64,000 nt of DNA from Bryobacteraceae bacterium (GCA_049512775.1 JBEKWU010000004.1:3096-67095); one strand, 5' to 3'. Shown: positions 18,785 to 44,744, counted from the stretch's first letter. A program made the numbers and translations. Notes: a model not told the origin generated them from the letters alone.

Positions 18785-19294
18785 CTACTTCTTCTTCATG
18801 GCGTCTAGCGCCCGCTGCAAGGTGTCGCGGTCGGCCGAGAACACCGCCCGAGACAACTCGCGCCGCAGGTCTTCCGGCTCGGGCTCCGGCGCTTCGGGGA
18901 TTTCGGCTCCCAGCAACCTGCGGACCGCCGCGACATACGTTGCCGGGCGCACCGGTTTTTCCAGGTAGACGCCCGGGCCGGACATGGTCATCTCGTCAAA
19001 ATCGGCTTTGCCCATCTCGTCGCGTGCGTGGCCGGTGACGATCAGGACGGGTATCTTGGACAATCGCTTGTCCTTCTGGAGCTCGCGATAGAATCTCGCG
19101 CCGGAATGGCGGGGCATCACCAGGTCAAGAGAGATCAGATCCGGCGGGCTGCGTCTGACGGCTTCGAGCGCCTGCAAGCCATCCGCAGCCGTGTCCACCA
19201 AAAAGCCGGCGTCTTCAAGAGCGATCCTCAGGTAATCGCGGACGTCCGCCTCGTCGTCCACAACCAGAACGCGTTTCTCCATTCCATCGGTCAT
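18785..19294 (-). CDS. Response-regulator receiver with a short C-terminal helical tail
   Basis: RVLVVDDEADV...PDLISLDLVMPRHSG...PVLIVTG...EKP. The ATG overlaps the kinase stop (ATGA). Confidence 0.9.
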   Translation of the reverse strand: MTDGMEKRVLVVDDEADVRDYLRIALEDAGFLVDTAADGLQALEAVRRSPPDLISLDLVMPRHSGARFYRELQKDKRLSKIPVLIVTGHARDEMGKADFDEMTMSGPGVYLEKPVRPATYVAAVRRLLGAEIPEAPEPEPEDLRRELSRAVFSADRDTLQRALDAMKKK

Positions 19295-22973: not shown

Positions 22974-23718
22974 CCGACTTCTCTTTCTGCCTCTTCATCC
23001 GCCTGCCGATGATCCAGTTGATTCCCGTCATCACCGCCAGCGCTCCGGTGAAAGCGAACGGGACCGCGTTCATCGCGTCGGCCGTCCTGAGCGGAACGGG
23101 CGTGTCGCCCAGGCCGCGGCCCTGCGTCAGGAACGAGAGGTCGACGTTGGAAACGTATAGGACCGAGGTCCCTCCGATCTCGTGCTCTCCCCACACCCGG
23201 TTCACGTAGACGCCCGGAGCCTCGCGGATGCGGCGGTGAGCTTCGGCCAGCAGGCTGTCGCGGTCTCCGAAAATCGTGGCTTTGACCGGACACACCTGGG
23301 TGCAGGCGGGCTGGGAGCCGGCGCGCAGCCGCTCGTAGCAGAGGATGCACTTGCGGACGTAAGGGACCGCCAGCTCCCAGTCGTAGCGCGGGATGCCGTA
23401 GGGGCAGGCCATCATGCAGTAGCGGCAGCCCATGCACTTGCCGCTGTCGTAGACCACCGCGCCCATTTCCGTCTTGTGCAGCGCGCCCACCGGACAGGCG
23501 GAAACGCACGCCGGCTCGAGGCAGTGGCGGCACTGCTTGCGCACGAACGCGTGCTTCGGCCCCTCGACAATGGAAGTCCAGTTCCGGGCGGACAGGCCGT
23601 CGTCGACGTCCCACCGCCGCGGGAGGTCCGGAGCAAGGTGGTTCACCTTCTTGCAGGCGACCGCGCATTCGTTGCAGCCGATGCACTTGGTGGTATCGGT
23701 GAGAATGGCCGCTTTCAT
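22966..23718 (-). CDS. HybA/DsrO/HmcB-type 4x[4Fe-4S] ferredoxin subunit with a C-terminal TM anchor
   Basis: CIGCNECAVACK, CRHCLEPACVSACP, CMGCRYCMMACP and CILCYERL...C clusters. C-terminal helix FAFTGALAVMTGINWIIG. Start at MKAAILTD. Confidence 0.85.
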   Translation of the reverse strand: MKAAILTDTTKCIGCNECAVACKKVNHLAPDLPRRWDVDDGLSARNWTSIVEGPKHAFVRKQCRHCLEPACVSACPVGALHKTEMGAVVYDSGKCMGCRYCMMACPYGIPRYDWELAVPYVRKCILCYERLRAGSQPACTQVCPVKATIFGDRDSLLAEAHRRIREAPGVYVNRVWGEHEIGGTSVLYVSNVDLSFLTQGRGLGDTPVPLRTADAMNAVPFAFTGALAVMTGINWIIGRRMKRQKEKSDG

Positions 23719-24491
23719 TTCGTGCGAGCCTCCTTTTCGGCGGGCGCGGGCGCCGCGGGCGCACCGTTTAACCGCGCCCTCTGCGCCCAGGAGGGCCGGT
23801 CCGCATAGCCCAGGGTGGCGGCCACGCGGTCGCCGGCCCCCGCGGGGAACTTCCAGGCAATGCCCGTCACCAACTGCGAGAGCGGCGCCAGCACGCAGTG
23901 GGCGATCTTGGTGAACGGGATCGTCGCCATCACCAGGTCGGCCGAGTAGACGTGGAACAGCATTACGGTCCGATAGGCCTTGGGGCCGATGGCGGCGTTC
24001 GAGCAGATGTACCCGGTGGCGAACGGCAGCGCGAGCAGCAGCAGCCAGGCATAATCCTGGAACCGGCTCAGCGCGCGTGCGCCGGCGTCCGCCGCGCGTC
24101 CGAGGAAGAGGCCCAGCGCCGTGGCAATCACGAGCAGCGTCAGCCAGTCGGCCGCCGGCTGAGGGAGGGCAGGCCAGGCGAAACCCACGGAACGCTTCCA
24201 CAACAGGACGTGCGCGGCCAGGAAAGGCGGAACCAGCAACAGGCCGGCGTGGAAAAGGACCGAAATCGCGCTGTAGACCGGCCGCTTGCTCCACAGTTTG
24301 CCCAACGGAGCCAACCACCCCAGGGTCCGCTTCACAATCTCCTTCCACGGCACGATCTTGTCCGGGTTGCGCCGGTAGCTTTCCGCAACCCCGATGAAGG
24401 TGAGCAGGAAGATCCGCAGCAGGCCGAGAACCATCAGGGAGAAGCTCAGCCGGAACAACGGCCCGCGGCCGAACTCAAGCCACGCGTCCAC
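23715..24491 (-). CDS. NarI/DsrM/HmcE-like di-heme cytochrome b membrane subunit
   Basis: Polytopic protein of the nitrate-reductase gamma-like type (FHAGLLLVPPFLAAHVLLW, VMLFHVYSADLVMATIPFTKIAH). I prefer the GTG at 24491, which has GGAGG 8 nt upstream; the track's ATG at 24521 is the alternative. Confidence 0.75.
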   Translation of the reverse strand: MDAWLEFGRGPLFRLSFSLMVLGLLRIFLLTFIGVAESYRRNPDKIVPWKEIVKRTLGWLAPLGKLWSKRPVYSAISVLFHAGLLLVPPFLAAHVLLWKRSVGFAWPALPQPAADWLTLLVIATALGLFLGRAADAGARALSRFQDYAWLLLLALPFATGYICSNAAIGPKAYRTVMLFHVYSADLVMATIPFTKIAHCVLAPLSQLVTGIAWKFPAGAGDRVAATLGYADRPSWAQRARLNGAPAAPAPAEKEARTK

Positions 24492-25917
24492 TTGGCTCAC
24501 CTCCCGGGCGGTCGAAGACAATGGCCTTGTACAGCAGGTCGTGCAGCCCCACGATCTGGCAATCGATCCCCTGGTCCTCCATCAGCTCGCGGAGCTGCTT
24601 CTTGCAGTTGGCGCAGGGCGCGACACAGTATTTGGCTCCGGTCGCTCGAATCTGATCGGCCTTGACACGGCCCCCGATCAGGGTCCGGTAGGGACGAATC
24701 TCGTCGATCGAGACAGTACCCCCGCCTCCGCCGCAGCAGATGTTGTCGCGCCGGTTGGGGGTCATCTCGACGTAGTTCCTGCAAAACGCCTTCAGCAGCT
24801 CGCGCGGCTGCTCGACGATCCAGCCGGGACGAGCGATATTGCACGGATCGTGGTACGTGACTTTCTCGGTGACGACGTTTGGGTCGAGCTTGAGGCGCCC
24901 CTCCTTCCAGGCCTGGTGCGTGTACTCCATGATGTTGAGGACGGGAAGCGCGTTCTTCCCCCCGCAGTAGGTGGGGTAGAAGAATTTGGCCGAGCGGGAC
25001 GCGTGGCCGCACTCGCCGATAAGAATCTTCTTCACCTTGAGCCGCTCGGCCTCCGCCTGGATCTTCCGCAACACGTGCTCCAGAACGTGGTCGCTGTAGA
25101 ACAGGCCGTAATTGATGCCGTCGAAGTAGCCCGTGCCGATAGTCCAACTGTCGCCGGTGGCCCGGAACACGGCGGCGTTGCCCATGAGCGTGTCGGCTTC
25201 CATCAGGAAGTCCGAGACGGCGGGGATGAACAGATACTCCGCGCCCTCCTGGTCGATCGGGAAGGGGATATCGATGCCCTTCTCCTCCCCCATGTCCTCG
25301 CTGAGAAACTCGAGGCTGTCGAGCAGGGCGGGAACGGGAATCGCGGAGGTGTTGCCGCTGGCGCCGAGCAGTTGCTCCCGGACGCTGACCGCCAGGGCCC
25401 GCGGCACGATACCGATTTCAGACAGAATGTAGCGCCCGAGGTGGGTGATGAGCGCGTGATCGATGCCCATGGGGCATTCGAAGTGGCAGCGGCGGCAGGC
25501 GGTGCAGTTGTAGAAGGATTCCGCCATCTCCTGGACCTTGTCGTCGGTCAGGCCCGGGTCGCCCAGGATGCGCCCGCGCAAAACGCCCGAAATCGTGAAA
25601 TGGCGGCGATAGACGGACAGCAGCAGCTCGGAGCGGTAGCAAGGGATGTCTTTCGCGTCGCCGGTCGCGAGATAGACCTGGCAGTTGGTGGTGCAGCGGG
25701 AGCACTTCGCGCCCACGCGGACATAGTGATCCAGGGCCACCCGGTAATTCGTGTGCTTGAGGATGGCGGCGAACGCTTCGAGGAACCGGCGCGGGCGCTC
25801 TTGCACGTCGAAGTCCTCGACGTGATAGCGGACGGCGAGGCGCTGCTTGCGGATCGCTTCCGGCTTCCTCGCGCTGGCCAGCGCTCTTTTTCTCTCTTCG
25901 GCGTTCAGTGGTTGCAT
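24475..25917 (-). CDS. HdrD/DsrK/HmcF-like CCG-domain iron-sulfur protein (paralog 1)
   Basis: Ferredoxin motifs CSRCTTNC and CTACRRCHFECP, plus CCG-type motifs (HDPCNIAR, ICCGGGGG, APCANCKKQ). Confidence 0.85.
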   Translation of the reverse strand: MQPLNAEERKRALASARKPEAIRKQRLAVRYHVEDFDVQERPRRFLEAFAAILKHTNYRVALDHYVRVGAKCSRCTTNCQVYLATGDAKDIPCYRSELLLSVYRRHFTISGVLRGRILGDPGLTDDKVQEMAESFYNCTACRRCHFECPMGIDHALITHLGRYILSEIGIVPRALAVSVREQLLGASGNTSAIPVPALLDSLEFLSEDMGEEKGIDIPFPIDQEGAEYLFIPAVSDFLMEADTLMGNAAVFRATGDSWTIGTGYFDGINYGLFYSDHVLEHVLRKIQAEAERLKVKKILIGECGHASRSAKFFYPTYCGGKNALPVLNIMEYTHQAWKEGRLKLDPNVVTEKVTYHDPCNIARPGWIVEQPRELLKAFCRNYVEMTPNRRDNICCGGGGGTVSIDEIRPYRTLIGGRVKADQIRATGAKYCVAPCANCKKQLRELMEDQGIDCQIVGLHDLLYKAIVFDRPGGEPSGRVA

Positions 25918-31845: not shown

Positions 31846-33507
31846 CTACTGCAGGTCGATGTAGCCGCAGGGGCACTCCTCGGCGCATTTCTTGCAGCCG
31901 TTACAGAGCTCCAGCTTCACTCGGTAGTGTTCCCCCTTCGGCAGCTTGACGAAACAACTGTTCGTGCAATACATCCAGCAGGTCTCGCAGTCCATGCACA
32001 TTCCGCAGGACATGCAGCGTTTGGCCTCGGCCAGCGCGTCCTCCTCCGCGAGGCCCCGCTCGATTTCCGCGTCGAGCGTCCGCCCGGCGACCGCAATCTG
32101 CGGCCGCTCGTGCCGGGCCGACTCCTTGTACCAGCCGAGCTTCATGCGTTCCGGCGCGATCGGCGGGGCGGCCAACGGCTTCTCGGGCGTGCGGCCGCGG
32201 AAGCGCGCGTCGATCGCCTCCGCCGCGAAGCGGCCCTGGGCGATGGCAATACTCACCAGGCCCAGCTCGACATCGTCACCGCCGGCATAGACGCCGTCGG
32301 TTTTTGTCGAGCCCCAGTCATCGGCCTTGATCCAATCCTTGCCCTCGTGCAGACCCGAGAGTCCGTCAAACCCGGGCTCCTGGCTGATGGCGGCGATGAT
32401 CGCGCTGGCTTCGATTTCGAACTCCGTGCCGGGCTTGGGCACGGGCCTCGGCCGGCCGGAAGCATCCGGCGCGCCCAATTCCATGCGGATCGCGTGCATG
32501 CCCACCGCGAGGCCGTTCCGCCGCACGATCTCGACCGGCGCGGCGAGGAACTCGATCTTCACTCCTTCTTCCAGCGCGCCCTCGATCTCCGGCTTAATGG
32601 CGGGCATCTCGGCGCGGGTGCGGCGGTACAGAATCGTGACGTCGGCCCCCAGGCGCTTGCCGACGCGGGCCGCATCGATGGCCGTGTCGCCCCCGCCGAT
32701 CACGATCACCTTATTGCCGAGCGCCACCGGCTCGCCCTGGTTCGCCCGGTTGAGGAACTCGGTCCCCGTTAGAACGTTCGGAGCGTCTTCACCGGGAATC
32801 CCCAGCTTCAGGCCCTTGTGCGCGCCGATGCCGACGAATACGGCCTGGTAGTCGCGGCGGAGGTCCTCCAGCGAAACGTCTCTGCCGGCCACGACATTGC
32901 ACTTCAGCTCGACGCCGAGATCGACAATCCGGTCGATTTCGGCGTCCAGCACCCCGCGGGGCAGCCGGTAGGCGGGAATGCCGTAGCGCAACATGCCGCC
33001 CGGCTTGCCGAATGCCTCGAACACCGTCACCGGATACCCGCGCCGCGAAAGCTGATAGGCGCAGGAGAGGCCCGCTGGTCCGGAGCCGATCACCGCGATC
33101 CGCTCCGGATAGGTCTCGGAGGTCAGTTTGGCGAGTTTCAGATTCTTGGAAATGCCGAAGTCGCCGATGAATCGCTCCAGCGCATTGATCGCGACCGGCC
33201 CCTCCTTGGCGTTCCGGTTGCACGCCTCCTCGCAGGGATGAGGACAAACCCGCCCGCAAACCGCCGGGAACGGATTCCGATCGACGATCATGTGCCAGGC
33301 GATCTCGTAGGCCTGCTCGTTGGTCCGGCCGTAGGCCTCCGCCTGCGCTATGGTCGTCAGCCAGCCACGGATGTCGGTTCCGCTAGGGCAGTGCCCGATG
33401 CACGGCGGCGCTTTCTGCGCGTAATACGGGCGCAACGCGCTGATGGCGCCGCCCGCCGTCGCGCTCGCCTTGATGGTCGGTTTCTTTGGCTGCTTAAAGA
33501 TGCCCAT
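31846..33507 (-). CDS. dsrL: DsrL, an NAD(P)H:acceptor oxidoreductase (GltD-like with a C-terminal ferredoxin domain)
   Basis: N-terminal Fe-S Cys motifs (CPSGTDIR..., CGRVCPHPCEEAC), IAVIGSGPAGLSCAY and VIVIGGGDTAIDAAR dinucleotide folds, and C-terminal CMSCGMCMDCETC / CNGCKKCAEECPCG. Confidence 0.85.
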   Translation of the reverse strand: MGIFKQPKKPTIKASATAGGAISALRPYYAQKAPPCIGHCPSGTDIRGWLTTIAQAEAYGRTNEQAYEIAWHMIVDRNPFPAVCGRVCPHPCEEACNRNAKEGPVAINALERFIGDFGISKNLKLAKLTSETYPERIAVIGSGPAGLSCAYQLSRRGYPVTVFEAFGKPGGMLRYGIPAYRLPRGVLDAEIDRIVDLGVELKCNVVAGRDVSLEDLRRDYQAVFVGIGAHKGLKLGIPGEDAPNVLTGTEFLNRANQGEPVALGNKVIVIGGGDTAIDAARVGKRLGADVTILYRRTRAEMPAIKPEIEGALEEGVKIEFLAAPVEIVRRNGLAVGMHAIRMELGAPDASGRPRPVPKPGTEFEIEASAIIAAISQEPGFDGLSGLHEGKDWIKADDWGSTKTDGVYAGGDDVELGLVSIAIAQGRFAAEAIDARFRGRTPEKPLAAPPIAPERMKLGWYKESARHERPQIAVAGRTLDAEIERGLAEEDALAEAKRCMSCGMCMDCETCWMYCTNSCFVKLPKGEHYRVKLELCNGCKKCAEECPCGYIDLQ

Positions 33508-33516
33508 GCTTCACCG

Positions 33517-34599
33517 CTAGAATCGCAGGTGAGTGGAGCGGGCGTAGGTCAGTCCGGCATGCTTGAAATCGTCGATGTGGTACCGGGTGAACTCGATGCC
33601 GGTCCGCTCGAAGAACCGCGGCCAGCCGATGCGCTCGATCCACTCGCCCAGCCGCTCGTGCTTCCGTGCGTTTTCCGCGTACACGTTTACGATGTTGACG
33701 ACGGCGTTCACCACCTCGGGCCAGCGCGGCGGGTTGTTCGGCACAAAAGGGATGGCCAGCTTGGTGAACTTCGGCGCGCTGCGCGCGTTGCTGACCTTGC
33801 CGCCCACCCAGATCGAGATGCCGTCGTTCTCGGGATCGTTCATCGGCATGGCGGGGCACACCGTATAGCAGTTGCCACAGAACATGCACTGCTCTTCGAC
33901 CACCTCGACCGACTGCTTGCCATCCACCGTCGCCGGCCGGATCGCGCCGGTCGGACAGGAGGCGATCAGCGTCGGCACCTCGCACACCTTCGCCAGTATG
34001 TCGTGGCGTATCTTCGGCGGCTTGCGATGGATGCCGAGGATCGCGATGTCCGAGCAGTGCACGGCGCCGCACATATTCAGGCAACAGGCGACCGCGATGC
34101 GCAGCTTGGCCGGCAGGTCCTGGGAGGTGAAGTGGTGGCAGAGCGCATCCATGACGCTCTTCACCAGGCCCGAAGCGTCCGTGGCCGAGGAGTGGCAGTG
34201 CACCCATCCCTGCGTGTGGACGATGTTGCTGATGGCATTATTGGTCCCGCCCACCGGGAAGCCGGCGTCCGCGAGATCCTTCTTGAGCGGCTCGATCTTG
34301 CCCGCGTCGTCGAGCAGGAACTCGACATTGTTGCGGCTGGTGAAGCGCAGGTAGCCGCCGCAGTACTTGTCGGCCAAGTCGGCGAAGAACCGGATGGTCT
34401 GGATGCTCAGCAGGCGTGGCGAGCCGGCGCGCACCGTGTAGAGCCGGTCGCCCGAGTGAGCCACGTGGCAGAGCACGCCGGGCGCGAGCGTTTCGTGGTA
34501 CTTCCACTGCCCGTAGTTCTTCTTGATCAGCGGATGGAGAAATTTCTCGTAATGGGGCGGTCCGATATCGGTGATTCTTTTGGTTGGTGCGGTTGCCAT
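33517..34599 (-). CDS. dsrB: Dissimilatory sulfite reductase beta subunit
   Basis: [23 protein letters not shown]...[13 protein letters not shown]...[10 protein letters not shown]...[14 protein letters not shown]...CPTGAI...[12 protein letters not shown]. Confidence 0.95.
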
Positions 34600-34617: not shown

Positions 34618-35805
34618 TCACTTCTCATCTTCGGGCTGGAAGTAGATATACGGGTTGTCGCGCGGCGCCGCGATCATCTCGGGAGCCGGCTCCAGACCGA
34701 TCGCATCGAGGAAGTTGGCCATCCCGACGCGCTGGATCAGCTCGCCGACGCGCTCGCGGTTCTTGCCGTACTCATCCCAGAACTCCCACACGCGAGAGAC
34801 CAGTTCCTTGACGGTATCGAGCAATTCATCCTCCGGCACAAACGGCACCAGCACGGAGGAAAGCAGCGCGCCCTGCATGATCGGCGCCTTGGAGCCGATC
34901 AGCAGCGTGGCGCCTTTCTCCTTGCCCGGAGCGAGCGCTTTCGGCATTACGTTGATGCAGTGCATGCAGCGGACGCACTCGCGGTTCTCGATTGCGAGCT
35001 TCTGCCCGTCCCAATCCATGCACTGGGTCGGGCACAGGTCGCAGACCTCTTTCTGGATGTCCAGGCCGCCGGCGGCGTATTCGGCCACCGCGGCGTCGTC
35101 CTGCTGGATATCGTCCTTCCAGGTCCCGATGATCGAGAGGTCGGAGCGCGCGATCGAAGCGACGCAGTCGTTGGGGCATCCGGAGCACTTGAACTTGAAC
35201 TTATAGGGGAACGGCGGCCGGTGCATCTCGTCCTGGTAGGCGCGAGTGAGGTTGTCGCACAGCTTGAGGGTGTCGTAGCACGCCCACTCGCAGCGCGCCC
35301 GGCCCACGCAGGCGGACGGCGTCCGCACACAGGACCCCGAACCGCCCAGGTCGAAGCCGGCTTCGGTCAGCTCCTTGAAGGTGGGCTCCAGCTCGGCGGT
35401 CTTGGTCCCGAGGAAGATGATGTCGCCGGTGGAGCCGTGCATGTTGGTGAGGCCCGAGCCGTGGCGCTCCCAGATATCGCAGAGCGTCCGCAAAGCCTCG
35501 CTGGTGTAGAACCAGCCGGAGGGCTGATTGACGCGCAGCGTGTGGAAGTGCGCCACCTTCGGGAACTGCTCGGGAACGTCGCTGTAACGGCCGATCACGC
35601 CGCCGCCGTAACCGAGCACGCCGACGATTCCGCCGTGCTTCCAGTGCCCCTTCTTCTCTTTGTACGACAGCTCGAGCTGGCCGAGCAGGTCGTTGCACAT
35701 CGGGTTGGTTTCGCCGGCTCTCTTGATCTCCCTGACGAAACTCGGCCAGGGACCCTTTTCCAACTCGTCCAGCAGTTCAGTTTTCGGTTTGTCGTTGTCG
35801 GCCAT
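34618..35805 (-). CDS. dsrA: Dissimilatory sulfite reductase alpha subunit
   Basis: [28 protein letters not shown]...[16 protein letters not shown]...[19 protein letters not shown]...[20 protein letters not shown]...[17 protein letters not shown] precedes the ATG. Confidence 0.95.
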
Positions 35806-35836: not shown

Positions 35837-36925
35837 CTATGATTTTCTGCCCACCGCTGCCATCGCGACTGTCCGGTAGACGAAGTGCGCAAACTTCGAG
35901 TAAGGCGCGTACAGGAACAGGGCGAAGATCAGCACCAAGTGTACAAAATACACCACATACATTGTGCCCGCCGCCCGGGCCAAGCGCAGCAACTCGGAGC
36001 CGATTCCGGTCACCACCACGCCCACCAGGGTCAGCAGGAAAAACCAATCGAAATACGTGCTCGCGGTCCGCTCGACCGGATCCCGAGTTCTTTCGGCGAG
36101 CAGCGTGATGCTGCCCGCCAGAATCGCCACGGCGCAAAGGTTCGCGAAGATTTTCAGGGGGTTGGTTAAGGCGAGCGGCGTATGCACGATGCCGGCCATC
36201 GTACCGATGCCGACCACCGTCCCCATGAGCGCGAGGCCGGCGAACCCCCACAGCGTGAGCAGGTGGCCCAGGCGCCGGTTGCCGCCGCGGTCGCACTTGG
36301 AGAAGCGGCTGTGGGCCAGAATTTCCTTGAGCGCGGGCGCCAGGCCCGCGAGAATAGGCGCGCTAGCCCCGGAGGCGCGCAGCGCGCGCACAAACCGCGC
36401 GATGCCGGTCGCGAAAGCCAGTGCGACCAGGCCGGCCACGATGAAAAAGAGCGGCTCCAGTACGCCGATGGGAAACACGCTCGCGAACTTGAGCGGGTCC
36501 AGTTCGGTTTTCGGCGCCCACAGCGCAATGCCGGCAAAGATGAGCGCCGGCACGAGCAGCAGAAGCACAAGCATCTTCGGGCTGGCGACCGCTTTCGCCA
36601 GCGCCTGCGGGACGGCGAAATGCTTGATCGCCGCCTGCCTCAGCGCGCCCAGCGTATCGCTCGGGCGGGCGCCGCGCGGGCACTGGACGGTGCAGTCGCC
36701 GCAATCGTGGCAGAGCCACAGCGCGGGATCGCCGACCACCCTTTCCTTCAAGCCCCACTGCGCCGCGATAATCTGCCGCCGCGGAAAGGGCGAGTCCTCG
36801 GGCGAGAGATTGCACACGGCCGAGCAGGCGGCGCACTGGAAGCATTTCTTGAGACCGGCGCCACCCGAGCTCATGACTTCCTCGATGAACGCTGTATCCG
36901 GCTCAATCCAGACGCTCGCAGTCAT
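35837..36925 (-). CDS. qmoC: QmoC (HdrC-like Fe-S domain fused to an HdrE-like heme b membrane domain)
   Basis: [11 protein letters not shown] and [12 protein letters not shown] are followed by about six TM helices. The stop is only 31 nt upstream of the dsrA ATG. Confidence 0.85.
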
Positions 36926-36927
36926 GG

Positions 36928-39180
36928 CTACATTCCCTTGTAGGGGTTCGGCCCCATTGCGCGGATGCGCTCCATGAATCCGTTAATCAGCGCGGGCAGT
37001 TTCTCGCACTCGTCGATCGAGATCTCGGTGGTTTCCAGGCGCTCGGGTTCGAGCTGCAGCCGCTGGAGCGTTTCTTTGACGTTCTCCAGGCGGCGCGCGG
37101 CCAACTCGCTGCCCCGAATGAAGTGGCACTGGTAGTCGTCGCCGTACTTGCACCCGATGAACATCACCCCGTCGATGCCGCGCGACAGCGCGTCGGCGAT
37201 CCAGACGATGTTCAGCGACCCCAGGCAGCGCAGCGGGATCACCCGCACGCCCGGGTCGTAGCGGAGGCGGCGGAAACCGGCGACATCGAGCGCCGGATAG
37301 GCGTCGTTCTCGCACATGAACACGACGACGCGCGGCTTCTCCTCGTCCTCCTCGGGCACTTCGATCGCCTTGATCATCGAGGCGATCATGTCCACCGAGT
37401 AATTCTTGAACGAGATGATGCGCTCCGGGCACGCGCCCAGGCAGATGCCGCAACGTCGGCAACGGTACGGGTTCGGCTTCGGCGTGCCTTTCTCGTCCTC
37501 GTCGATGCTGCCGAACGGGCACTCCTCGGTACAACGCTTACATTGCGTGCAGCGCTGGAGCAAAAAGCTGGGAAACGAGAGATCGCCGGCCCTGGGATGA
37601 ACGGCCTGGCCCCGCGCAGCCATTTCGACCGCCTGAATGGCCTTCATCGCCGCGCCCAAGGCATCCTCTTGCGCCTGGGCCGAATCCATCGGCGCGCGCA
37701 CGGCCCCGGCCGCGTAGATTCCCGTGCGCCGGGTTTCGTACGGGAAGCAGATGAAATGCGAATCGGGGAAGCCGTGCCGCAGAACCGGCAGATCCGGCCC
37801 CTGCCGATAGGTCAAGTTCAGGATCTCGGTTCCCTTATGCGACTTCAGCTCGCCGGCGCGACGCGCGGCATCGGCACGCTGGCTTTCGGTCTCTCCCTTG
37901 GCCGCCCTCGACTCGGCATCCTCGAGCGCTCGGATCGCTTCGCCGTCGGCGGAGTTGGGCACCATGCCGGTAGCGAGCACGACCAGATCCACGTGAACGA
38001 CAACCTCCTCGCCAAGGAGCGTGTCCTTCAACGTCACTGCGAGTTCCCCGGAAGGCAGTTCTTGGACGGAAGCCACCTCGCCCTTGGTGAGGAAATTGAA
38101 CGGATGGTCCTGGGCGGCGCGGTAGAAGCGCTCGTACTGCCCCGGCGTCCGCATGTCCTTGTAGACGATGTAGACCTTGGCCCGGGCGTTCTGCTCGTGG
38201 ATGTACCCGGCGTGTTTGAGCGTGGCCATGCAGCACACGGCTGAGCAGTAGGGCAGGTGGTTTGGATCGCGAGAACCCGCGCACTGCGCGAACAAGACGC
38301 TGCCGGCTGGCCGGCCATCGGACGGCCGCGCGATCGGCCCGCCCGCCGCCATGCGCTCCAACTCGACGTTGGTGATCACGTTTGGCAGCCCGTAGCCCAG
38401 GTGCGCCAGCCGCGTAGCGTCGTACGGTTTCCAGCCCGTGGCCAGCACGATCGCCCCGGCGCGCACCGTGGAAACCACTCCTTCGCGCTCCACCGTGACA
38501 TCGAACATCCCGGGCTGGCCTTCCGTTTTGACGATCCGCGCGGACGTGAATACCTGGATCTTGGGGTGGTAACTGGCCTCCTGGATCCTTCGCGCGATGC
38601 CGTCGACCGCCGGCGCGGTGTAGGGAGGCGCACTCGGGAAGCGGCTCTTCAGCGGCGCGACGAAACCGCCCAGCCGGGCCTCTTTCTCGACCAGCACGAC
38701 TTCGTAACCGGCCGCCGCCGCCTCCAGCGCCGATGTGACGCCGGCGATGCCGCCGCCGACCACCAGCAGCTTCTTTGACACCGTTTCCGAGAGCGGCTCC
38801 GGCGGCTCCGACTTCTGCGCCTTGACGACGCCCATGCGGAGGTAGTCCTCCGCGAGCATCTGCGTATCCTCGTCCCGCGGCGCGTGGCACCAGGCCACGT
38901 GCTCGCGCAGGTTGACGCGCTCGAGCACCACCTTCGAGTCGAATGCGAACGCATCCGTTTTGGCGCGCGGAGAGCAGGCCGCGACCACTACCGTGTCTAC
39001 CGCGCCGCCCTCGACGTCCTTGCGGATCAGCTCGCGGCCCTCCGGCCCGCACAGGAACGGGTGGACCTGGCACACCGGGGCTTTGCACTCGCGCCGGGCC
39101 ACTTTGGCGAGCTGCTCCGTGTCGATCGCTTCGCCGATCCCGCAGCCGCCGCAGATGTAGACGCCGGGCTTCTTAGGCAT
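36928..39180 (-). CDS. qmoB: QmoB (HdrA-like flavoprotein with an MvhD-like C-terminal domain)
   Basis: 750 aa. LLVVGGGIAGVTSALEAAAAGYEVVLVEK, CSAVCCMATLKH, ferredoxin motifs CTQCKRCTEECP / CRRCGICLGACP, and C-terminal VVVFMCENDAYPALD. Confidence 0.9.
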   Translation of the reverse strand: MPKKPGVYICGGCGIGEAIDTEQLAKVARRECKAPVCQVHPFLCGPEGRELIRKDVEGGAVDTVVVAACSPRAKTDAFAFDSKVVLERVNLREHVAWCHAPRDEDTQMLAEDYLRMGVVKAQKSEPPEPLSETVSKKLLVVGGGIAGVTSALEAAAAGYEVVLVEKEARLGGFVAPLKSRFPSAPPYTAPAVDGIARRIQEASYHPKIQVFTSARIVKTEGQPGMFDVTVEREGVVSTVRAGAIVLATGWKPYDATRLAHLGYGLPNVITNVELERMAAGGPIARPSDGRPAGSVLFAQCAGSRDPNHLPYCSAVCCMATLKHAGYIHEQNARAKVYIVYKDMRTPGQYERFYRAAQDHPFNFLTKGEVASVQELPSGELAVTLKDTLLGEEVVVHVDLVVLATGMVPNSADGEAIRALEDAESRAAKGETESQRADAARRAGELKSHKGTEILNLTYRQGPDLPVLRHGFPDSHFICFPYETRRTGIYAAGAVRAPMDSAQAQEDALGAAMKAIQAVEMAARGQAVHPRAGDLSFPSFLLQRCTQCKRCTEECPFGSIDEDEKGTPKPNPYRCRRCGICLGACPERIISFKNYSVDMIASMIKAIEVPEEDEEKPRVVVFMCENDAYPALDVAGFRRLRYDPGVRVIPLRCLGSLNIVWIADALSRGIDGVMFIGCKYGDDYQCHFIRGSELAARRLENVKETLQRLQLEPERLETTEISIDECEKLPALINGFMERIRAMGPNPYKGM

Positions 39181-40435
39181 TGTGAGCGCTCCTCACAACG
39201 CACTGGAGGGCTTTTAGCGCCGCGCCAGTCGAGTCCTGAACCGTTGCCGAGACCTCGGCCGGGCGCCGCGCACAACCAGTCCCGTAGAGCCCGGTTTTGC
39301 CGGCCCCGTTCGCGATGAACCGGAACTCGTCCAGGACGAAGCCGGGCGGCAGATCTTCGGTCTGCGGAACGATGCCGGTGGCAAGCACCAGCAGTGCCAC
39401 GCGCAGGGTGCTCTTCACGCCGCGGGCCACGTTTTCCGCAATCACCAACAGATCGCCCGTCGCGGCATCTTCTTCGACTTTGCCGACCTTGCCCTTGACC
39501 AATTGCAGCTTGTCGTCGGCGCTGACGCGCGCATAGAACTCCTCGAGCAGTCCGGGCGTGCGGATGTCGATGTAGAAGATGGTCACCGCCGCATCGGGAT
39601 ACAGCGTGCGGATATAGGTGGACTGCTTGAGCGAGGCCGCGCAACAGACCGCCGAGCAGTACGGCAGGTGGTTTTCGTCGCGCGAGCCGGCGCACTGAAC
39701 GAAGGCGACCGAGCGTGGCTCCTGGCCGTCCGACGGGCGCAGAATCCGGCCACCCGTGGGGCCGTCACGGGCGGCCATCCGCTCGAGCATCACGTTGGTC
39801 ACGACGTTCCGGTACTTGCCGAACCCGAGATTCTCGATCTTCGCGGCGTCGTACGGCGCCCACCCCGTGGCGGCAATCACTGCGGCCGCCCGGAAGGTCC
39901 TGCACCCGGCCTGCTGCTGGAGGTCGATCGCGCCGTACTTGCAGGCGTCGGCGCAAGCGTGGCAGCCCTCCGGGCACGCGGCACGGTCGATTGCGTAACG
40001 CATCGGGAACGCCAGCGTGTGTGGCAAGTAAGCCGCTTTCGAATTCGAGAGACCGTAGTTGAACTCATCGGGGCGCTCGGCCGGGCACGCTTCGGCGCAT
40101 GCTCCGCAAGCCGTGCACGCCTCGGTCACGTAGCGCGGCGCCACTGCGACGGTTACCTCGTAATCGCCCGGCCCGCCGGTGACGTTTTCGACCCGCGCCT
40201 GCGTCAGTACGGTGATTCGCGGGTTGCTCTTGATGCGCTTGAAGTTGATCTCGAGGCCGCATCCCGGCGGGCAGAGTTTTGGGAAGTACTGGTTCATCCG
40301 CGCAACGCGGCCGCCCAGCGTGGGCGACTTCTCGACGATGATGGCCTCGCAGCCGGCTTCAGCCGCCTCTACCGCGGCGGTCACCCCGGCGATTCCGCCG
40401 CCGATTATGAGGACCGGTTTGCCGCTCCCGTTCAT
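39173..40435 (-). CDS. qmoA: QmoA (HdrA-like flavoprotein)
   Basis: PVLIIGGGIAGVTAAVEAAEAGCEAIIVEK, CTACGACAEACP, CSAVCCAASLKQ. The stop overlaps the qmoB start by 8 nt. Confidence 0.9.
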   Translation of the reverse strand: MNGSGKPVLIIGGGIAGVTAAVEAAEAGCEAIIVEKSPTLGGRVARMNQYFPKLCPPGCGLEINFKRIKSNPRITVLTQARVENVTGGPGDYEVTVAVAPRYVTEACTACGACAEACPAERPDEFNYGLSNSKAAYLPHTLAFPMRYAIDRAACPEGCHACADACKYGAIDLQQQAGCRTFRAAAVIAATGWAPYDAAKIENLGFGKYRNVVTNVMLERMAARDGPTGGRILRPSDGQEPRSVAFVQCAGSRDENHLPYCSAVCCAASLKQSTYIRTLYPDAAVTIFYIDIRTPGLLEEFYARVSADDKLQLVKGKVGKVEEDAATGDLLVIAENVARGVKSTLRVALLVLATGIVPQTEDLPPGFVLDEFRFIANGAGKTGLYGTGCARRPAEVSATVQDSTGAALKALQCVVRSAHNA

Positions 40436-41259
40436 CTCACCTCGACTGCGCTCCGGGCCGCCGCGCGCTGCTTCGTCTGCTCCGGCGCCGAGCGCCTCAT
40501 CTTCATCGTTCGTTGCCGCAACAGGCTGAACCGGAGCCACTGGATGGCGAACTCCAGCAGTTCCTCGTCGTCCGTGCGCATGGCCTCGACCCGGGTCTCA
40601 TCCACGTCGAACAGTTCGAGAAACCGAGTCTCGAACACGAAGCTGCGGAAGCGGTCCAGGTCGTAGCAGGCCATGTGGTACATGTCCATTTGCTGGGGCA
40701 TCAGGGGCTGGCCTTGGTCCCAGCCCTCGTCGAGCATCAGCGCTTTGAAGGAGGCATTGGCGGCGTCGTATTCCTCCAGGCCCTGGCTGGCGATCCACTC
40801 GCGCACCGAGGTCCCGCAGCCCTGGCCGTGCCCGTGGCAAAGATCCTCGTGGACCAGGAAGTGGAACGGATGATCGGTTGGAGTCGCATTGCGCGGTTCG
40901 GCCACCCCGAGCGGGTACATGCGGCAGGCCCAAGGGCGGTCGGCATAGATGCTGCACCCCGCGGGCGTGACGAACGGGCATGCGCCGGCCTGCGGGTCCA
41001 TCTTGAGGAGCACGGCGGGAATCTTCTGGTCCTTGCTGAAGGGCGAGATCGTGTACCGGCGCAAGAACTCCGAGGAATCGACGCCCAGCGCGCGTTTCGT
41101 GCGCAGCACATCGTAGGGCGCCAGCACGATCGCCACATCGGCACAGCAGCACGTGAAGCAGTCCAGGTGTTTGCCGCACTCGAAGGCGAAACGGTCGTCG
41201 GGGCCCATCCTCGGGCAGTCGCGCAGGATCGCCTCCTGAGTCAGTTCGCTATCCGGCAT
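40432..41259 (-). CDS. YkgJ-family (UPF0153, CxxCxxCC-type) cysteine-cluster protein
   Basis: [17 protein letters not shown] plus [25 protein letters not shown] are the YkgJ hallmark motifs. The stop overlaps the qmoA ATG (ATGA). Confidence 0.75.
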
Positions 41260-41536
41260 GAGTTGGCTCCCCGGCGAGGATGCCGCTTTTCAACGCATCG
41301 TTGGACCAGACCGGCAGCGGCCCACACTCGCCCGTCGTGGGATCGATTCGGCAACGATAGGATGCCGTTACATTGTAGTGCTCGCGCATCCACACCCAGC
41401 CGCGCACAAAGTAGGGGCAGTCGTCGCTGAAACAAACGTACTGGAATTCCCCGCTCCAGGTGCTGGCCTGCGGGTTGGCCCACGCGGCCATGGGGTTGCC
41501 GCAATGCGGGCACGTCGTTTGGATCTGCCTGGCCAT
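41249..41536 (-). CDS. Small Trp/Cys-rich zinc-ribbon-like protein of unknown function
   Basis: [16 protein letters not shown]...(22 aa)...CFSDDCPYF gives C-x2-C-x22-C-x4-C. A further C-x8-C pair is present ([12 protein letters not shown]). It overlaps the YkgJ start by 11 nt. I prefer the start at M17 because the track start at 41584 abuts the aprA stop. Confidence 0.55.
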
Positions 41537-41584: not shown

Positions 41585-43507
41585 CTATACAGGGGCCCCC
41601 GCGGTCTGCTGCTCGAAGATATGCCGGATCGGGCGGGCCAGCGTCTGCCAACTGTTCGTATTCGGGTCGTACTTGCAGTTGGCGAACACGTGCCACTTCT
41701 GCTCATCGATGCTGGGCTTATCAGCGCGGAAGTAGTAGCCGGGCCATCGGGTCTCTTCGCGGAACAGAACGGTCCGGACGTGCGCCTCCGCCTGCCACAT
41801 GCGGTGGACGTTCTCCCAACAACGCATGAGTTCGTGCAGGTTCTCTGCCGCCAGTTTCTCCGAGTCCTCCTTGAGGAAGGCCAGGAGCTCCAGCGCTCGC
41901 TCGAGCAGAGCCTGGTTCGTGATGAATTGAGCCGTGATGCCGCCGGCGTACTCGTCCATGATCTTCTGAAGGCGGAACATGAACATCCGGGGTTTGATGT
42001 AGTTCGGGTTGATATCGGGGTCGGTGGTTGCTTTCTGGTGCTGCTCGTAGGTGTCCAGCGGCCGCAGGATCTCGGCCTTGAGTGCTTCGATCGCGGCCGG
42101 CGAGAGGTCCGGCATGGAATTGTTCTCGACGATGTACTTGATGGCCGCCTTGGCGGCAATGCGGCCTTCCGCGTGCGAGCCCGAGGAGAACTTGTGGCTC
42201 GAGGCGCCCGAGGCGTCGCCGGCGCAGAACAGACCGCTCACCGTCGACATGTTGGCGTAACCCCAGAAGTACTCGTCGCGGGTCGAAGCCGTCTGCAAGT
42301 CTTCCGGACCGCTGATCCAGGCGCCGGAAGCGCCGGAGTGCGAGCCGATGAAGTACGGCTCGGCGGCCGCGATTTCGGAGCTGCGCTCCTCGGGCTGGAC
42401 GTTGGTCGCCGCCCAGAGGATCGCCTGGGAGATGGTCATGTCGAGGAAGTCTTCCCAGGCTTCCGACTCGAGCTCCTTCATCTTCTTCTTGTGAGCTTTC
42501 GGGTCGTCCTTGTACTTCTCCGCGATCTTCTGGAGGGCTTCTTCGGTCCGCATATAGATCGGGCCCTTGCCGTCCATCACATCCAGCATCCCCATGTAGT
42601 TGCGCAGGTTGGCGGGAATCGGTTTCACCCGGCCGTAGGGGGCCCATTTCTCCAGTTCCGGCCTGCGCTCCACCATGTAGTCGCCGCCGAAGGAATTCGT
42701 CGCGCGCGACTTGAACAGCAGGAACCACGCGCCGACCGGGCCGTAGGCGTCCTTGAAGCGCACCGGGATGAAACGCACTTCCTGGCAGGTCATCTCGGCG
42801 CCGGCTTTCAGGGTGAAGTAGGCCGAGGAGCCCGAGTTCCATGGCGGATACCAGGCGCGCCCCATGCCTTCGCCAGAGCTCCTGGGCTTGAACACGTGCA
42901 CCGCGCCGCCCATCGCCACCAGCGTGGCCTTCGACTTGAATACGTAGAACTTGTTCTCGCGCACTGAGAAGCCCACCGCGCCGGCGCAGCGGTCGCCGTC
43001 CAGCAGGGGTCCCACAATGAACACCCGCTCGAAGATCTGGCCGACGCCGTCCTCGAGCAGGGCGTTCTTGGCCGCCTCGGCGACCACCACCTTGTAGGAC
43101 TCGCCGTTGATCATCAACTGCCACCGGCCCTCATGCACATAGGCGCCGTTCTCGTCCTTCCAGATAGGCAGGCCCCACTGCTCGAACAGGTGCACCGTGG
43201 AGTCCACGTGGCGCGCGATGTTAGCGACCAGGTCCTCCCGTGTGATTCCCATCAGGTCATTGCGGACGTAATCGACGTAGTCCTTGACGGAATTGGCGCC
43301 GTCCCTCAGCCCGACGTACTGGTTGATTGCGGAGAGACCCATCGCCACCGCGCCCGAACGGTCCACGGCCGCCTTGTCCACCAGCGTCACTTTCAGCCCG
43401 TTCTTCCGGGCCCAGTAGGCCGCCTCGACCGCCGCGCCGCACGCCGCCATGCCGCCACCGAGGATAAGGAGGTCGGTCTCAACCACTACAGTTTCGAAGT
43501 TTGCCAT
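41585..43507 (-). CDS. aprA: Adenylylsulfate (APS) reductase alpha subunit
   Basis: TDLLILGGGMAACGAAVEA..., GRWQLMINGESYK, FIPVRFKDAYGPVGAWFLLFK, AEPYFIGSHSGASGAW. Confidence 0.95.
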   Translation of the reverse strand: MANFETVVVETDLLILGGGMAACGAAVEAAYWARKNGLKVTLVDKAAVDRSGAVAMGLSAINQYVGLRDGANSVKDYVDYVRNDLMGITREDLVANIARHVDSTVHLFEQWGLPIWKDENGAYVHEGRWQLMINGESYKVVVAEAAKNALLEDGVGQIFERVFIVGPLLDGDRCAGAVGFSVRENKFYVFKSKATLVAMGGAVHVFKPRSSGEGMGRAWYPPWNSGSSAYFTLKAGAEMTCQEVRFIPVRFKDAYGPVGAWFLLFKSRATNSFGGDYMVERRPELEKWAPYGRVKPIPANLRNYMGMLDVMDGKGPIYMRTEEALQKIAEKYKDDPKAHKKKMKELESEAWEDFLDMTISQAILWAATNVQPEERSSEIAAAEPYFIGSHSGASGAWISGPEDLQTASTRDEYFWGYANMSTVSGLFCAGDASGASSHKFSSGSHAEGRIAAKAAIKYIVENNSMPDLSPAAIEALKAEILRPLDTYEQHQKATTDPDINPNYIKPRMFMFRLQKIMDEYAGGITAQFITNQALLERALELLAFLKEDSEKLAAENLHELMRCWENVHRMWQAEAHVRTVLFREETRWPGYYFRADKPSIDEQKWHVFANCKYDPNTNSWQTLARPIRHIFEQQTAGAPV

Positions 43508-43522
43508 GATGATCCTCTCTTT

Positions 43523-43963
43523 CTAGCCCTTCAGGGTGAAGACCTCGGGCAGCCCCAACGAGGCTGGCTCGGTGAACAGCGCCGGGCTGTTGAGGTCGTC
43601 GCCGGCCGGAAAGCCTCCATCGGGGACCGCGGCTCCTTCCGGGGTTGTGCGAATGGGGAATTTGAACCGCTTGATCATTCCATTGCGGAACTTCACGGTC
43701 CAGAGGATGGAATCTGTGGAACGCATGGGTGTGGCAGAGGCACCCATGGGGACGAAATCGGCATAACCGCGAACCTCGACGGCCTGTGTGGGACAGATCT
43801 TCACGCAGTTGTAACACTCCCAGCACATCGAAACGTCGCGGTTGTACGCCTTCATCGTTGCCTTGTCCAGCACCATCAGGTCATTAGGGCAAATATACTG
43901 GCAAGCCGTCTTATCGAGCGCCTTGCAGCCATCGCACTTGTCAGGATTCACGTAGCTTGGCAT
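43523..43963 (-). CDS. aprB: APS reductase beta subunit
   Basis: MPSYVNPDKCDGCKALDKTACQYICPNDLM...CWECYNCVKICPTQA, with the AprB C-terminal tail. Confidence 0.95.
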   Translation of the reverse strand: MPSYVNPDKCDGCKALDKTACQYICPNDLMVLDKATMKAYNRDVSMCWECYNCVKICPTQAVEVRGYADFVPMGASATPMRSTDSILWTVKFRNGMIKRFKFPIRTTPEGAAVPDGGFPAGDDLNSPALFTEPASLGLPEVFTLKG

Positions 43964-44099: not shown

Positions 44100-44744
44100 T
44101 CATGCCGGCGGCTTGGGACGAACAATCGGGTGTTGGCATCCCAGGTAGAAGCAGGTGCGCCGCCCGAATTCTCCAAACCGGCAATTGTTGCGAAAGTAGA
44201 TCTCGCACTGAAGGCAGACTTCGTCTAGCTTCTCCCGCTCACTGGCGATGCCGGCTGCCAGCCGGTCCAGGAGCACGGACGCATGCTGCACTTCCTCCGG
44301 CGAGAACTGCTCGAAGATCTTGACGGCCTTCTGATTTCGGGCCGCCTCGTAGGCTTCGAGCAGCCGGCGACTGGCTTCGGTCAAGCTAATAGCGCTGGTG
44401 CGCCGGTCGCCCTGAATGTCATTCCGCCGGAGCAGGCGCCGGCGTACCAGTTTTTCCACCGCCTTGCTGGCGGCCGGACTGCTCACCCCAAGAAAGGTCG
44501 CCGCATCGCCAATCGTCACTTCATCGGTCTGCGCCACCAGGTACAGCAGCTTGAGTTGGGCAAAAGTCAATTTGTCACCGACCACCTCGCGCAGAACCGC
44601 CGCTTCGCAGACGTCGCGGACGGCCTTGGCGAAGACTCGAGCGCTAGCCAGGAATTGGTGCGTGAGGTCGGGGGTGATCGTGTTCTCCACGTCCTGCCTT
44701 CCTGCCCGGCCCGGGACCGCCACGCCGGGCCAATAGGTAACCAC
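44100..44744 (-). CDS. MarR-family transcriptional regulator with a C-terminal five-cysteine extension
   Basis: Winged-helix core (LTFAQLKLLYLVAQTDEVTIGDAATFLGVSSPAASKAVEKLVRRRLL) followed by the tail VCLQCEIYFRNNCRFGEFGRRTCFYLGCQ (C-x2-C-x7-C-x9-C-x4-C). The start is uncertain: ATG at 44744, or GTG at 44690 with AGGAAGG upstream. Confidence 0.75.
   Translation of the reverse strand: MVTYWPGVAVPGRAGRQDVENTITPDLTHQFLASARVFAKAVRDVCEAAVLREVVGDKLTFAQLKLLYLVAQTDEVTIGDAATFLGVSSPAASKAVEKLVRRRLLRRNDIQGDRRTSAISLTEASRRLLEAYEAARNQKAVKIFEQFSPEEVQHASVLLDRLAAGIASEREKLDEVCLQCEIYFRNNCRFGEFGRRTCFYLGCQHPIVRPKPPA

Follow-up and report, generated by a model that had tools for sequence, protein, structure and literature searches.

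The window, a 64,000-nucleotide (nt) stretch of DNA from Bryobacteraceae bacterium (GCA_049512775.1 JBEKWU010000004.1:3096-67095), harbors an apr-qmo-dsr gene cluster in which two cysteine-rich genes are inserted between aprA, encoding the alpha subunit of adenosine 5′-phosphosulfate (APS) reductase, and qmoA. One encodes a zinc-ribbon protein (ZnF) and the other a cysteine-cluster protein of the YkgJ type. Comparison of genomes and published transcriptomes establishes that the pair belongs to the apr-qmo module, with which it is conserved and co-expressed, in at least two deep clades, and the pair is very probably a dedicated accessory of the APS reductase/Qmo step. A first-pass annotation, made from the window sequence, had put the two genes forward as a candidate adaptor, maturation factor, or redox coupler for this step, and that proposal is supported by synteny, co-regulation, and predicted metal sites.

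Electron transfer between Qmo and AprAB is an unresolved step of dissimilatory sulfate reduction, and the pair provides two clonable candidates at precisely that junction, with metal ligands conserved across hundreds of uncultured species and with induction alongside the pathway. Peat and soil harbor the host lineages, which comprise Acidobacteriota and other lineages of metagenome-assembled genomes (MAGs) with DsrL, in abundance, and it is debated in which direction their sulfur metabolism runs. An Apr/Qmo accessory particular to these hosts could be a marker or a determinant of sulfur physiology. For a large two-domain branch of the uncharacterized PF03692 family, the pair also provides a first functional setting.

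Gene organization at the Apr/Qmo junction

All relevant genes are on the minus strand in the order aprB, aprA, ZnF, YkgJ-type gene, qmoABC, dsrA, dsrB, and dsrL, followed by dsrT-, dsrM-, dsrK-, dsrO-, and dsrP-like genes (Table 1). The closest solved relative of the window AprA is A. fulgidus AprA (1JNR, 787 bits). The TAG stop of aprA (41587-41585) is separated from the ATG of ZnF (41536) by a spacer of 48 nt. The ATG of the YkgJ-type gene (41259) lies within ZnF, such that the two genes overlap by 11 nt, and a Shine-Dalgarno-like GGGGAG motif is found 7 nt 5′ of it. The TGA stop of the YkgJ-type gene shares the tetranucleotide ATGA (40435-40432) with the start of qmoA, and GAGGTGAG stands just 5′ of this overlap. 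All the structural claims of the first-pass annotation hold, namely the spacer, the 11-nt overlap, the ATGA junction, and the lengths of 95 and 275 amino acids (aa) for the two proteins. A sigma-70 promoter and terminator scan of the operon returned nothing informative.

The canonical aprBA-qmoABC clusters of sulfate reducers and green sulfur bacteria have the same five genes in the same order, with Qmo as the presumed electron donor to AprAB (PMC3333476). Unlike them, the window has two extra conserved genes and a conserved hairpin between aprA and qmoA.

Conservation in the Acidobacteriota

Clade 1 derives from a scan of one genome per GTDB species, with at least 546 relatives, of which the best 80 loci were analyzed. 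These are almost all from Acidobacteriota MAGs (Bryobacterales, Solibacteraceae, Vicinamibacterales, Thermoanaerobaculia, and Terriglobales) and include SbA3 and Ca. Sulfopaludibacter CO124 (locus L065). ZnF and the YkgJ-type gene are adjacent in 80/80 loci; aprBA lies upstream wherever the contig reaches, and qmoA is the next gene in all but one locus (L015). In 64 of the 80 loci, the two genes of the pair share 8 or 11 nt. Of 73 orthologous loci, 32 show an overlap of 4 or 8 nt between the YkgJ-type gene and qmoA, and most others have a gap of at most 43 nt; the spacer between aprA and ZnF has a median length of 81 nt. The pair is both encoded with and coupled to qmoABC, by the ATGA in the window and by overlapping or closely spaced genes at most orthologous loci, with L015 as the exception.

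The median identity to the window proteins is 85.5% for AprB, 85% for AprA, 82% for DsrA, and 84% for DsrB. The corresponding values are 70% for QmoB, 68% for QmoA, 65% for ZnF, 60% for the YkgJ-type protein, and 57% for QmoC, such that the pair evolves at a Qmo-like rate.

In five loci of the Terriglobales/Acidobacteriaceae type (L050, 8116-9657, plus strand, and also L069, L073, L076, and L077), an extra gene of ~1.5 kb is present between aprA and ZnF. Judged by eye from the motif LAGPLHGLANQEVLEW, the extra gene of L050 appears to be citrate-synthase-like.

Two further clades

Clade 2, with P0244 as its representative, is 42% identical to the window YkgJ-type protein, and its taxonomy is taken from a small number of NCBI labels of MAGs (Myxococcota, Pseudomonadota, or “bacterium”). 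The gene order in 5/5 look-ups is LysR followed by aprB-aprA-(ZnF)-YkgJ-qmoA-qmoB-qmoC-sat, with divergent dsrAB, a small open reading frame, and dsrL. The small gene of the pair is a ZnF homolog of 39-49% identity (tblastn) that retains CPHCG, CFxDxC, and the aromatic residues. In L081 (7853-8003) and L082, a 146-nt hairpin-containing spacer alone parts aprA from the YkgJ-type gene. The clade 2 AprA is 74-78% identical to that of the window and therefore belongs to the same Apr lineage.

Clade 3 (representative P0317) is 33-38% identical and lies on the far side of a rough neighbor-joining tree. It was obtained by a metagenome scan with a four-sequence alignment that returned 80 contigs, which are named by MAG labels or not at all. 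Among the 31 contigs with at least 2 kb upstream, the YkgJ gene is divergent from aprB in 28, at a median distance of 684 nt. The aprBA-qmoABC genes are on the other strand, and aprA and qmoA are parted by a 300-400 nt spacer with no inserted gene. No ZnF homolog was detected in the clade 3 contigs, and their AprA is closest to that of Desulfovibrio gigas (931 bits). A second YkgJ paralog (representative cluster P0356) is present within 5 kb in 23 of 24 contigs.

The clade 3 block (e.g., L091 8001-10539) is composed of a YkgJ paralog, a gene for an enoyl-ACP-reductase-like short-chain dehydrogenase/reductase (SDR), and the second YkgJ paralog on the other strand. In three contigs with an off-apr block, the neighbors are genes for a peptidase U32, a response regulator, or a metallo-beta-lactamase.

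Homologs are therefore not scattered at random, an outcome that the first-pass annotation would have counted against its proposal had it been seen; the three YkgJ clades lie in or beside aprBA-qmoABC (80/80 loci, 5/5 look-ups, and 28/31 contigs). Genomic context, sampled for three or four of ~38 representative clusters, shows the two-domain YkgJ subfamily as a whole to be associated with aprBA.

Expression and the intergenic hairpin

Expression is known from the published transcriptomes of one acidobacterial MAG, CO124, in one study (Dyksma and Pester 2023). In reads per kilobase per million (RPKM), the YkgJ-type gene (1368) is at 0, 0, 0, and 0 under oxic and at 6.6, 9.0, 8.5, and 7.5 under anoxic conditions, with a log2 fold change of -7.18 and an adjusted P of 6.5e-10 (Dyksma and Pester 2023). 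The ZnF gene (1369) is likewise at 0, 0, 0, and 0 and at 4.5, 2.0, 5.4, and 2.7, respectively (log2 fold change -4.76; adjusted P 0.003). The anoxic values are 49-66 for aprA, 51-63 for aprB, 0.3-1.7 for qmoA, 2.5-2.9 for qmoB, and 1.5-3.7 for qmoC (Dyksma and Pester 2023), which places the pair at or above qmoABC and ~10-fold under aprBA. Because both genes are silent in oxic samples and are induced under anoxia together with aprBA, qmoABC, and dsr, the pair is co-induced with the pathway, contrary to the lack of co-transcription with qmoA that the first-pass annotation had listed among results refuting its proposal.

The hairpin (Table 1) fills nearly the whole spacer between aprA and ZnF and ends 9 nt ahead of the ZnF ATG. 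In the window, no T-run follows the hairpin, and the terminator scan did not pick it up; several orthologous copies have T-runs. Among 67 orthologous spacers that could be tested, nearly all contain a perfect 10-16 bp hairpin of different sequence (median free energy, dG, -40 kcal/mol; 85% with z < -2 versus shuffles). The clade 2 spacers carry a hairpin as well (L081, L083, L084, L166, and L167), and across the two clades it is maintained as a structure rather than as a sequence. In CO124, RPKM values drop from ~58 for aprA to ~4-8 for the next two genes, a ~10-fold step that coincides with the hairpin. On the basis of the conserved structure and this step, the hairpin is probably an attenuator or a 3′ stabilizer that sets high AprBA and low ZnF-YkgJ-Qmo expression.

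The YkgJ-type protein

The N-terminal domain of the YkgJ-type protein harbors eight cysteines, arranged as C28-x5-C34-x3-C38-C39, C94, C102, RPWAC112RMYP, and C141. The protein matches PF03692 over residues 34-118 (34.8 bits; cut-off 23), and the invariant motif R108-P109-x2-C112-R113-x-Y115-P116 fits the family pattern of a cysteine cluster ending in CC followed by C...C...RPxxCRx(Y/F)P. The first-pass annotation was correct as to the family, although the CxxCxxCC that it described is not present with that literal spacing. The C-terminal domain is helical and spans ~130 aa. All eight cysteines are kept in 80/80 clade 1 loci, and each of them is kept in 103-108 of the 108 sequences of an alignment of 107 full-length family representatives and the window protein, as is RPxxCRxYP.

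Homologs number 1301, and the best 120 share 57-99% identity with the window protein; the few named ones are called Acidobacteria or Bryobacteraceae. A precomputed PF03692 hit is attached to homologs as well. A phmmer search of 1.84 billion cluster representatives yields 1783 matches at E <= 1e-3 and 140 at E <= 1e-30, most of them 240-310 aa long and aligned over the whole query. The only domain fusion among the subfamily representatives is to a radical-SAM domain in P0352 (690 aa), in which this domain covers residues 88-238 and the YkgJ-subfamily module covers C-terminal residues 453-684; the other long forms contain PF03692 alone.

E. coli YkgJ/UPF0153 shares with the window protein the Pfam domain and the order of a cysteine cluster followed by C...C...RPxxCRxYP. 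Generic members of YkgJ/UPF0153 are single-domain proteins of ~80-110 aa whose function is not known. The window protein, in contrast, belongs to a longer, two-domain subfamily of ~140 representative clusters (E < 1e-30), the sampled clades of which are linked to aprBA.

The only characterized PF03692 member found in the literature searched is FliB, the flagellin lysine N-methylase of Salmonella. FliB has eight conserved cysteines and one cluster, an O2-sensitive [4Fe-4S] cluster that is bound by CX4CX3CC and is needed for methylation dependent on S-adenosylmethionine (SAM) (Wang et al. 2021, PMC8598068). The window protein resembles FliB in its PF03692 domain and in the number of conserved cysteines, and its N-terminal motif, CX5CX3CC, differs from that of FliB by one residue of spacing. 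The two proteins differ in that the window protein is ~275 aa long with its own conserved C-terminal helical domain, is encoded in an apr/qmo rather than a flagellar context, and carries no indication of methyl transfer. The metal site that the first-pass annotation predicted for this protein is thus supported at the level of ligands, and by analogy with FliB a metal cofactor is predicted to be bound there.

The AlphaFold2 (AF2) model of the protein (mean predicted local distance difference test score, pLDDT, 77.5) consists of a mixed alpha/beta, Cys-rich N-terminal domain and a C-terminal helix bundle. Foldseek finds no PDB match to the model at E <= 0.001, and the alignment profile finds nothing below E = 0.1 among PDB sequences. 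Searches at E <= 1 against NCBIfam return no FliB or other enzyme model and one spurious 10-bit hit; no family is found in PHROGs. Pfam returns nothing for the C-terminal halves of four members of the subfamily, and neither a SAM-binding nor any other catalytic domain was detected with it. The YkgJ-type proteins are acidic, with a median isoelectric point (pI) of 5.2.

A CCG/HdrB-like identity of the protein was considered and rejected, as no PF02754 hit is obtained at E <= 0.01.

The zinc-ribbon protein

ZnF contains the cysteines C9-x2-C12-x22-C35-x4-C40, followed by a Trp/Tyr-rich beta region, and has five tryptophans in total. It matches the Pfam family Ogr_Delta (PF04606) with 38 bits, above the gathering score of 26.3, and has the family spacing CX2CX22CX4C. 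The four zinc-ribbon cysteines are kept in 80/80 clade 1 loci with a gap of 20-22 residues, in agreement with the predicted metal site. A further C-x8-C pair that the first-pass annotation had pointed out is present as C62-x8-C71 but is not kept among homologs, in which only the zinc-ribbon cysteines are conserved.

The 115 homologs are 59-100% identical in their aligned part, which covers 55-100% of the query, and the apr-qmo locus is the context of every one whose context was examined. Residues W19, W27, C35, C40, Y42, F43, G46, M50, Y60, R61, and R63 are invariant in the alignment. With its abundance of W, Y, and F, the invariant surface looks more like a protein-protein than a DNA-binding interface. 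The AF2 model (mean pLDDT 80.8) combines a zinc ribbon with a single helix and a region of beta-hairpin; it has no PDB match in Foldseek at E <= 0.001, and the alignment profile retrieves nothing below E = 0.1 from the PDB sequences. ZnF is acidic (median pI 5.5, net charge -2).

The four-cysteine zinc ribbon CX2CX22CX4C and the Pfam match above the gathering score are shared with phage P2 Ogr and P4 Delta. However, ZnF matches no PHROG family at E <= 0.01, including the phage Ogr/Delta families, is acidic rather than basic, and has an extra conserved Trp-rich beta region of ~45 aa. It is chromosomal and resides in an enzyme operon; every locus examined has this enzyme-operon context rather than that of a phage or satellite late activator. 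No NCBIfam family matches ZnF.

A 111-aa version of ZnF (database entry P0121) that initiates at GTG 41584, one nt past the aprA stop, and reads through the hairpin was rejected, since homologs begin at the ATG of the 95-aa form. About 40 of the 115 database homologs (72-86 aa, most without an Ogr_Delta hit) appear to begin at an internal Met and to miss the first CxxC; alignment confirmed this start for six. All 80 loci encode the CxxC, and these short entries therefore look like start-site miscalls, as does P0121.

Proposed role of the pair

The interpretation favored here, which is tentative and falls short of an even chance, is that the YkgJ-type protein, as an iron-sulfur protein, and ZnF, as a zinc protein, would form a pair that attaches to QmoA and/or AprB and serves either as additional subunits or as a redox adaptor. 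It is based on the translational coupling to qmoA, the Qmo-like transcript level and divergence, and the acidic, Cys-rich character of the pair; an acidic pI is shared by many electron carriers. It is also based on the failure of electron transfer from Qmo to Apr in vitro, which was followed by the proposal of a third partner (Ramos et al. 2012, PMC3333476). The first-pass annotation had named an additional partner or confurcation as proposals for this step, in line with that study.

In the proposed mechanism, the YkgJ-type protein would hold at least one [4Fe-4S] cluster on CX5CX3CC, with four more invariant cysteines free for a second metal site. It would form a complex with ZnF, as suggested by the translational coupling of their genes. 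The complex would dock as extra subunits on QmoA, at the cytoplasmic side of Qmo, and/or on AprB, where it could serve as a redox relay or adaptor that aids the passage of electrons between QmoABC and AprAB in either direction. Expression would be organized in two tiers such that aprBA is transcribed at a high level and the conserved hairpin after aprA lowers or delimits the transcript, while ZnF, the YkgJ-type gene, and qmoA would be translated as a coupled unit at a lower, Qmo-like level.

Several observations weigh against a subunit or adaptor. The Desulfovibrio Qmo and Apr complexes are described with their known subunits only (Ramos et al. 2012, PMC3333476); the pair is therefore no universal requirement of the step. 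It does not occur wherever QmoABC occurs and is missing from within the operon in the Desulfovibrio-type contigs sampled, in which the YkgJ homolog lies outside. FliB, the one characterized family member, is an enzyme and not an electron carrier (Wang et al. 2021, PMC8598068). In L015 (976-13262), aprBA-ZnF-YkgJ is followed by dsrAB, and a divergent qmoCBA (39-57% identity) lies upstream on the opposite strand. There, the pair stays with aprBA and not with qmo, and coupling to qmoA is thus not obligatory. Dedicated chaperones such as NarJ are also typically operon-internal and translationally coupled. L081 and L082 of clade 2 have no ZnF, and the YkgJ-type cluster persists. The clade 3 YkgJ gene is co-oriented with the SDR gene outside the apr operon, and in L107, L130, and L137 (3/31 contigs) the block is away from apr. 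Its adjacency to apr may be inherited synteny in one lineage, which makes it weaker evidence than clades 1 and 2.

A more far-reaching form of this proposal regards ZnF and the YkgJ-type protein as “QmoD/E”, subunits of a Qmo-Apr supercomplex that would supply the iron-sulfur entry/exit site of the third partner, with separate-locus paralogs performing the same job in Desulfobacterota-type sulfate reducers. It is quite improbable. If true, menaquinol-linked APS reduction, or its reversal, would be made thermodynamically feasible, and the YkgJ subfamily of ~250-290 aa would have been overlooked as a general component of dissimilatory APS reduction.

Alternative explanations

The main rival to an extra subunit or redox adaptor is a maturation or modification system, which is held to be less likely and, taken by itself, is unlikely. 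The YkgJ-type protein would be a FliB-like [4Fe-4S] enzyme, possibly SAM-dependent, or a chaperone for iron-sulfur or flavin insertion, and ZnF would be its specificity or targeting partner; both would act transiently on AprA/AprB or QmoA/QmoB at assembly. FliB, with its near-identical CX4CX3CC and eight conserved cysteines, is itself a [4Fe-4S]- and SAM-dependent protein lysine methylase (PMC8598068), and P0352 is fused to a radical-SAM domain. The absence of the pair from within Desulfovibrio-type apr-qmo operons is more in keeping with a helper confined to certain lineages than with a redox subunit of the core, and the Desulfovibrio complexes as described, with no extra subunits, agree with such a helper, as does the retention of the pair with aprBA in L015 though qmo has relocated. 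However, no FliB or other enzyme model is matched in NCBIfam at E <= 1, no SAM-binding or catalytic domain is detected, and the C-terminal half has no Pfam family. Transcripts that equal or exceed those of qmoABC are high for a catalytic maturase, as judged from RNA data only. To our knowledge, no post-translational modification has been described in the solved AprAB structures, which also counts against a maturase.

A regulatory pair, in which the Ogr/Delta-like ZnF activates transcription of sulfur genes and the iron-sulfur protein acts as an oxygen or redox sensor that controls ZnF, is highly improbable. The zinc-ribbon spacing and the Ogr_Delta match above the gathering score fit such a role, as do the oxygen-sensitive cluster of FliB (PMC8598068) and the strictly anoxia-induced expression of the gene cluster in CO124. 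Nevertheless, ZnF is acidic (pI 5.5, net charge -2) and lacks a PHROG Ogr/Delta match, its conserved surface is aromatic (W, Y, F) instead of basic, and its gene sits in mid-operon, coupled to enzyme genes. Both the window and clade 2 have separate MarR or LysR genes upstream of aprB, and the cluster is kept without ZnF in L081 and L082. A precedent against assigning function from fold is DsrD, which was once a “probable regulatory protein” and is now annotated as an allosteric activator of DsrAB.

Unrelated passengers, that is, an old insertion fixed in one lineage with no Apr/Qmo role, would agree with the large size and many contexts of PF03692 and with the three clade 3 contigs that have the genes away from apr, but this explanation is effectively excluded by the position, overlaps, and metal ligands that are all kept in 80/80 loci while protein identity drops to 53%, by the recurrence of the layout in clade 2 at 42% identity, by co-induction with the pathway, and by the confinement of the ZnF family to the apr-qmo context among homologs whose context was examined.

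Relation to known systems and previous descriptions

Small conserved genes whose roles are not obvious from sequence also occur inside sulfate-reduction operons in the form of DVU0851 and DsrD, to which the pair has no sequence relationship. DVU0851 is reportedly dispensable for sulfate reduction. In the D. vulgaris operon as outlined by Zane et al. 2010, it lies downstream of qmoC at the promoter-distal end; the pair, by comparison, occupies the Apr/Qmo junction and is conserved much more broadly.

HdrB/HdrC of the QmoAB-HdrBC arrangement (CCG, PF02754) likewise represent a Cys-rich iron-sulfur protein encoded beside QmoA/B, the iron-sulfur nature being predicted in the present case. By analogy, such a protein could provide an extra redox site for the HdrA-like flavoprotein. 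The YkgJ-type protein has no CCG domain, however, and QmoC is present, so the pair is no replacement for QmoC.

Both genes have appeared in print. The legend to Fig. 2 of Hausmann et al. 2018 refers to genes drawn in grey in these clusters, and the locus-tag numbering there leaves room, in SbA3 and SbA2, for two or three genes without a name between aprA and qmoA; ZnF and the YkgJ-type gene are presumably among the grey-marked genes. Dyksma and Pester 2023 tabulate both as “hyp” under “conserved hypothetical proteins”. The literature on YkgJ, COG0727, UPF0153, or PF03692 in connection with sulfate reduction yielded no functional description, and no discussion was found of what the pair does, of its occurrence outside Acidobacteria, or of an association of the YkgJ subfamily with aprBA. 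The view of the first-pass annotation that the pair is not a described component of the pathway thus stands as far as function is concerned, but not in the sense that the genes had gone unlisted. The pair is best rated as a known pathway module with two widely conserved, uncharacterized components, neither already explained nor categorically new.

Other features of the window

Table 1. Coordinates and supporting evidence for features of the window
Feature	Coordinates	Strand	Evidence
MarR-family regulator gene upstream of aprB	44100..44744	-	Pfam MarR_2 41.7 bits
aprB, APS reductase beta subunit, first operon gene	43523..43963	-	Pfam APS-reductase_C 121.5 bits and Fer4 domains
aprA, APS reductase alpha subunit	41585..43507	-	Pfam FAD_binding_2 and Succ_DH_flav_C; TAG stop 41587-41585
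GC-rich hairpin GGGGAGATCCCCG-GCGA-CGGGGATCTCCCC, 13-bp perfect stem, GNRA-type loop	41546..41575	-	sequence reading
ZnF, 95-aa zinc-ribbon protein	41249..41536	-	Pfam Ogr_Delta
YkgJ-type 275-aa cysteine-cluster protein	40432..41259	-	Pfam PF03692
qmoA	39173..40435	-	Pfam FAD and Fer4 domains
qmoB	36928..39180	-	Pfam FlpD 143 bits, Pyr_redox_2, Fer4
qmoC	35837..36925	-	Pfam Fer4_8 and Nitrate_red_gam
dsrA	34618-35805	-	Pfam NIR_SIR; tblastn self-hits
dsrB	33517-34599	-	Pfam NIR_SIR; tblastn self-hits
dsrL	31846-33507	-	Pfam Fer4_20 and Pyr_redox_2; tblastn self-hits
HdrD-like CCG/Fer4 protein	24475-25917	-	PF02754 detected by the same Pfam library
Fer4_11 protein	22966-24348	-	downstream of dsrMKJOP-like genes
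NrfD protein fused to multihaem cytochrome c	21120-22973	-	downstream of dsrMKJOP-like genes
PAS histidine kinase	19291-21123	-	downstream of dsrMKJOP-like genes

The MarR-family gene upstream of aprB is a separate candidate regulator of the apr-qmo-dsr cluster, as judged from its sequence. Downstream of the dsrMKJOP-like genes, four genes on the minus strand (19291-25917) constitute a second NrfD-type membrane module.

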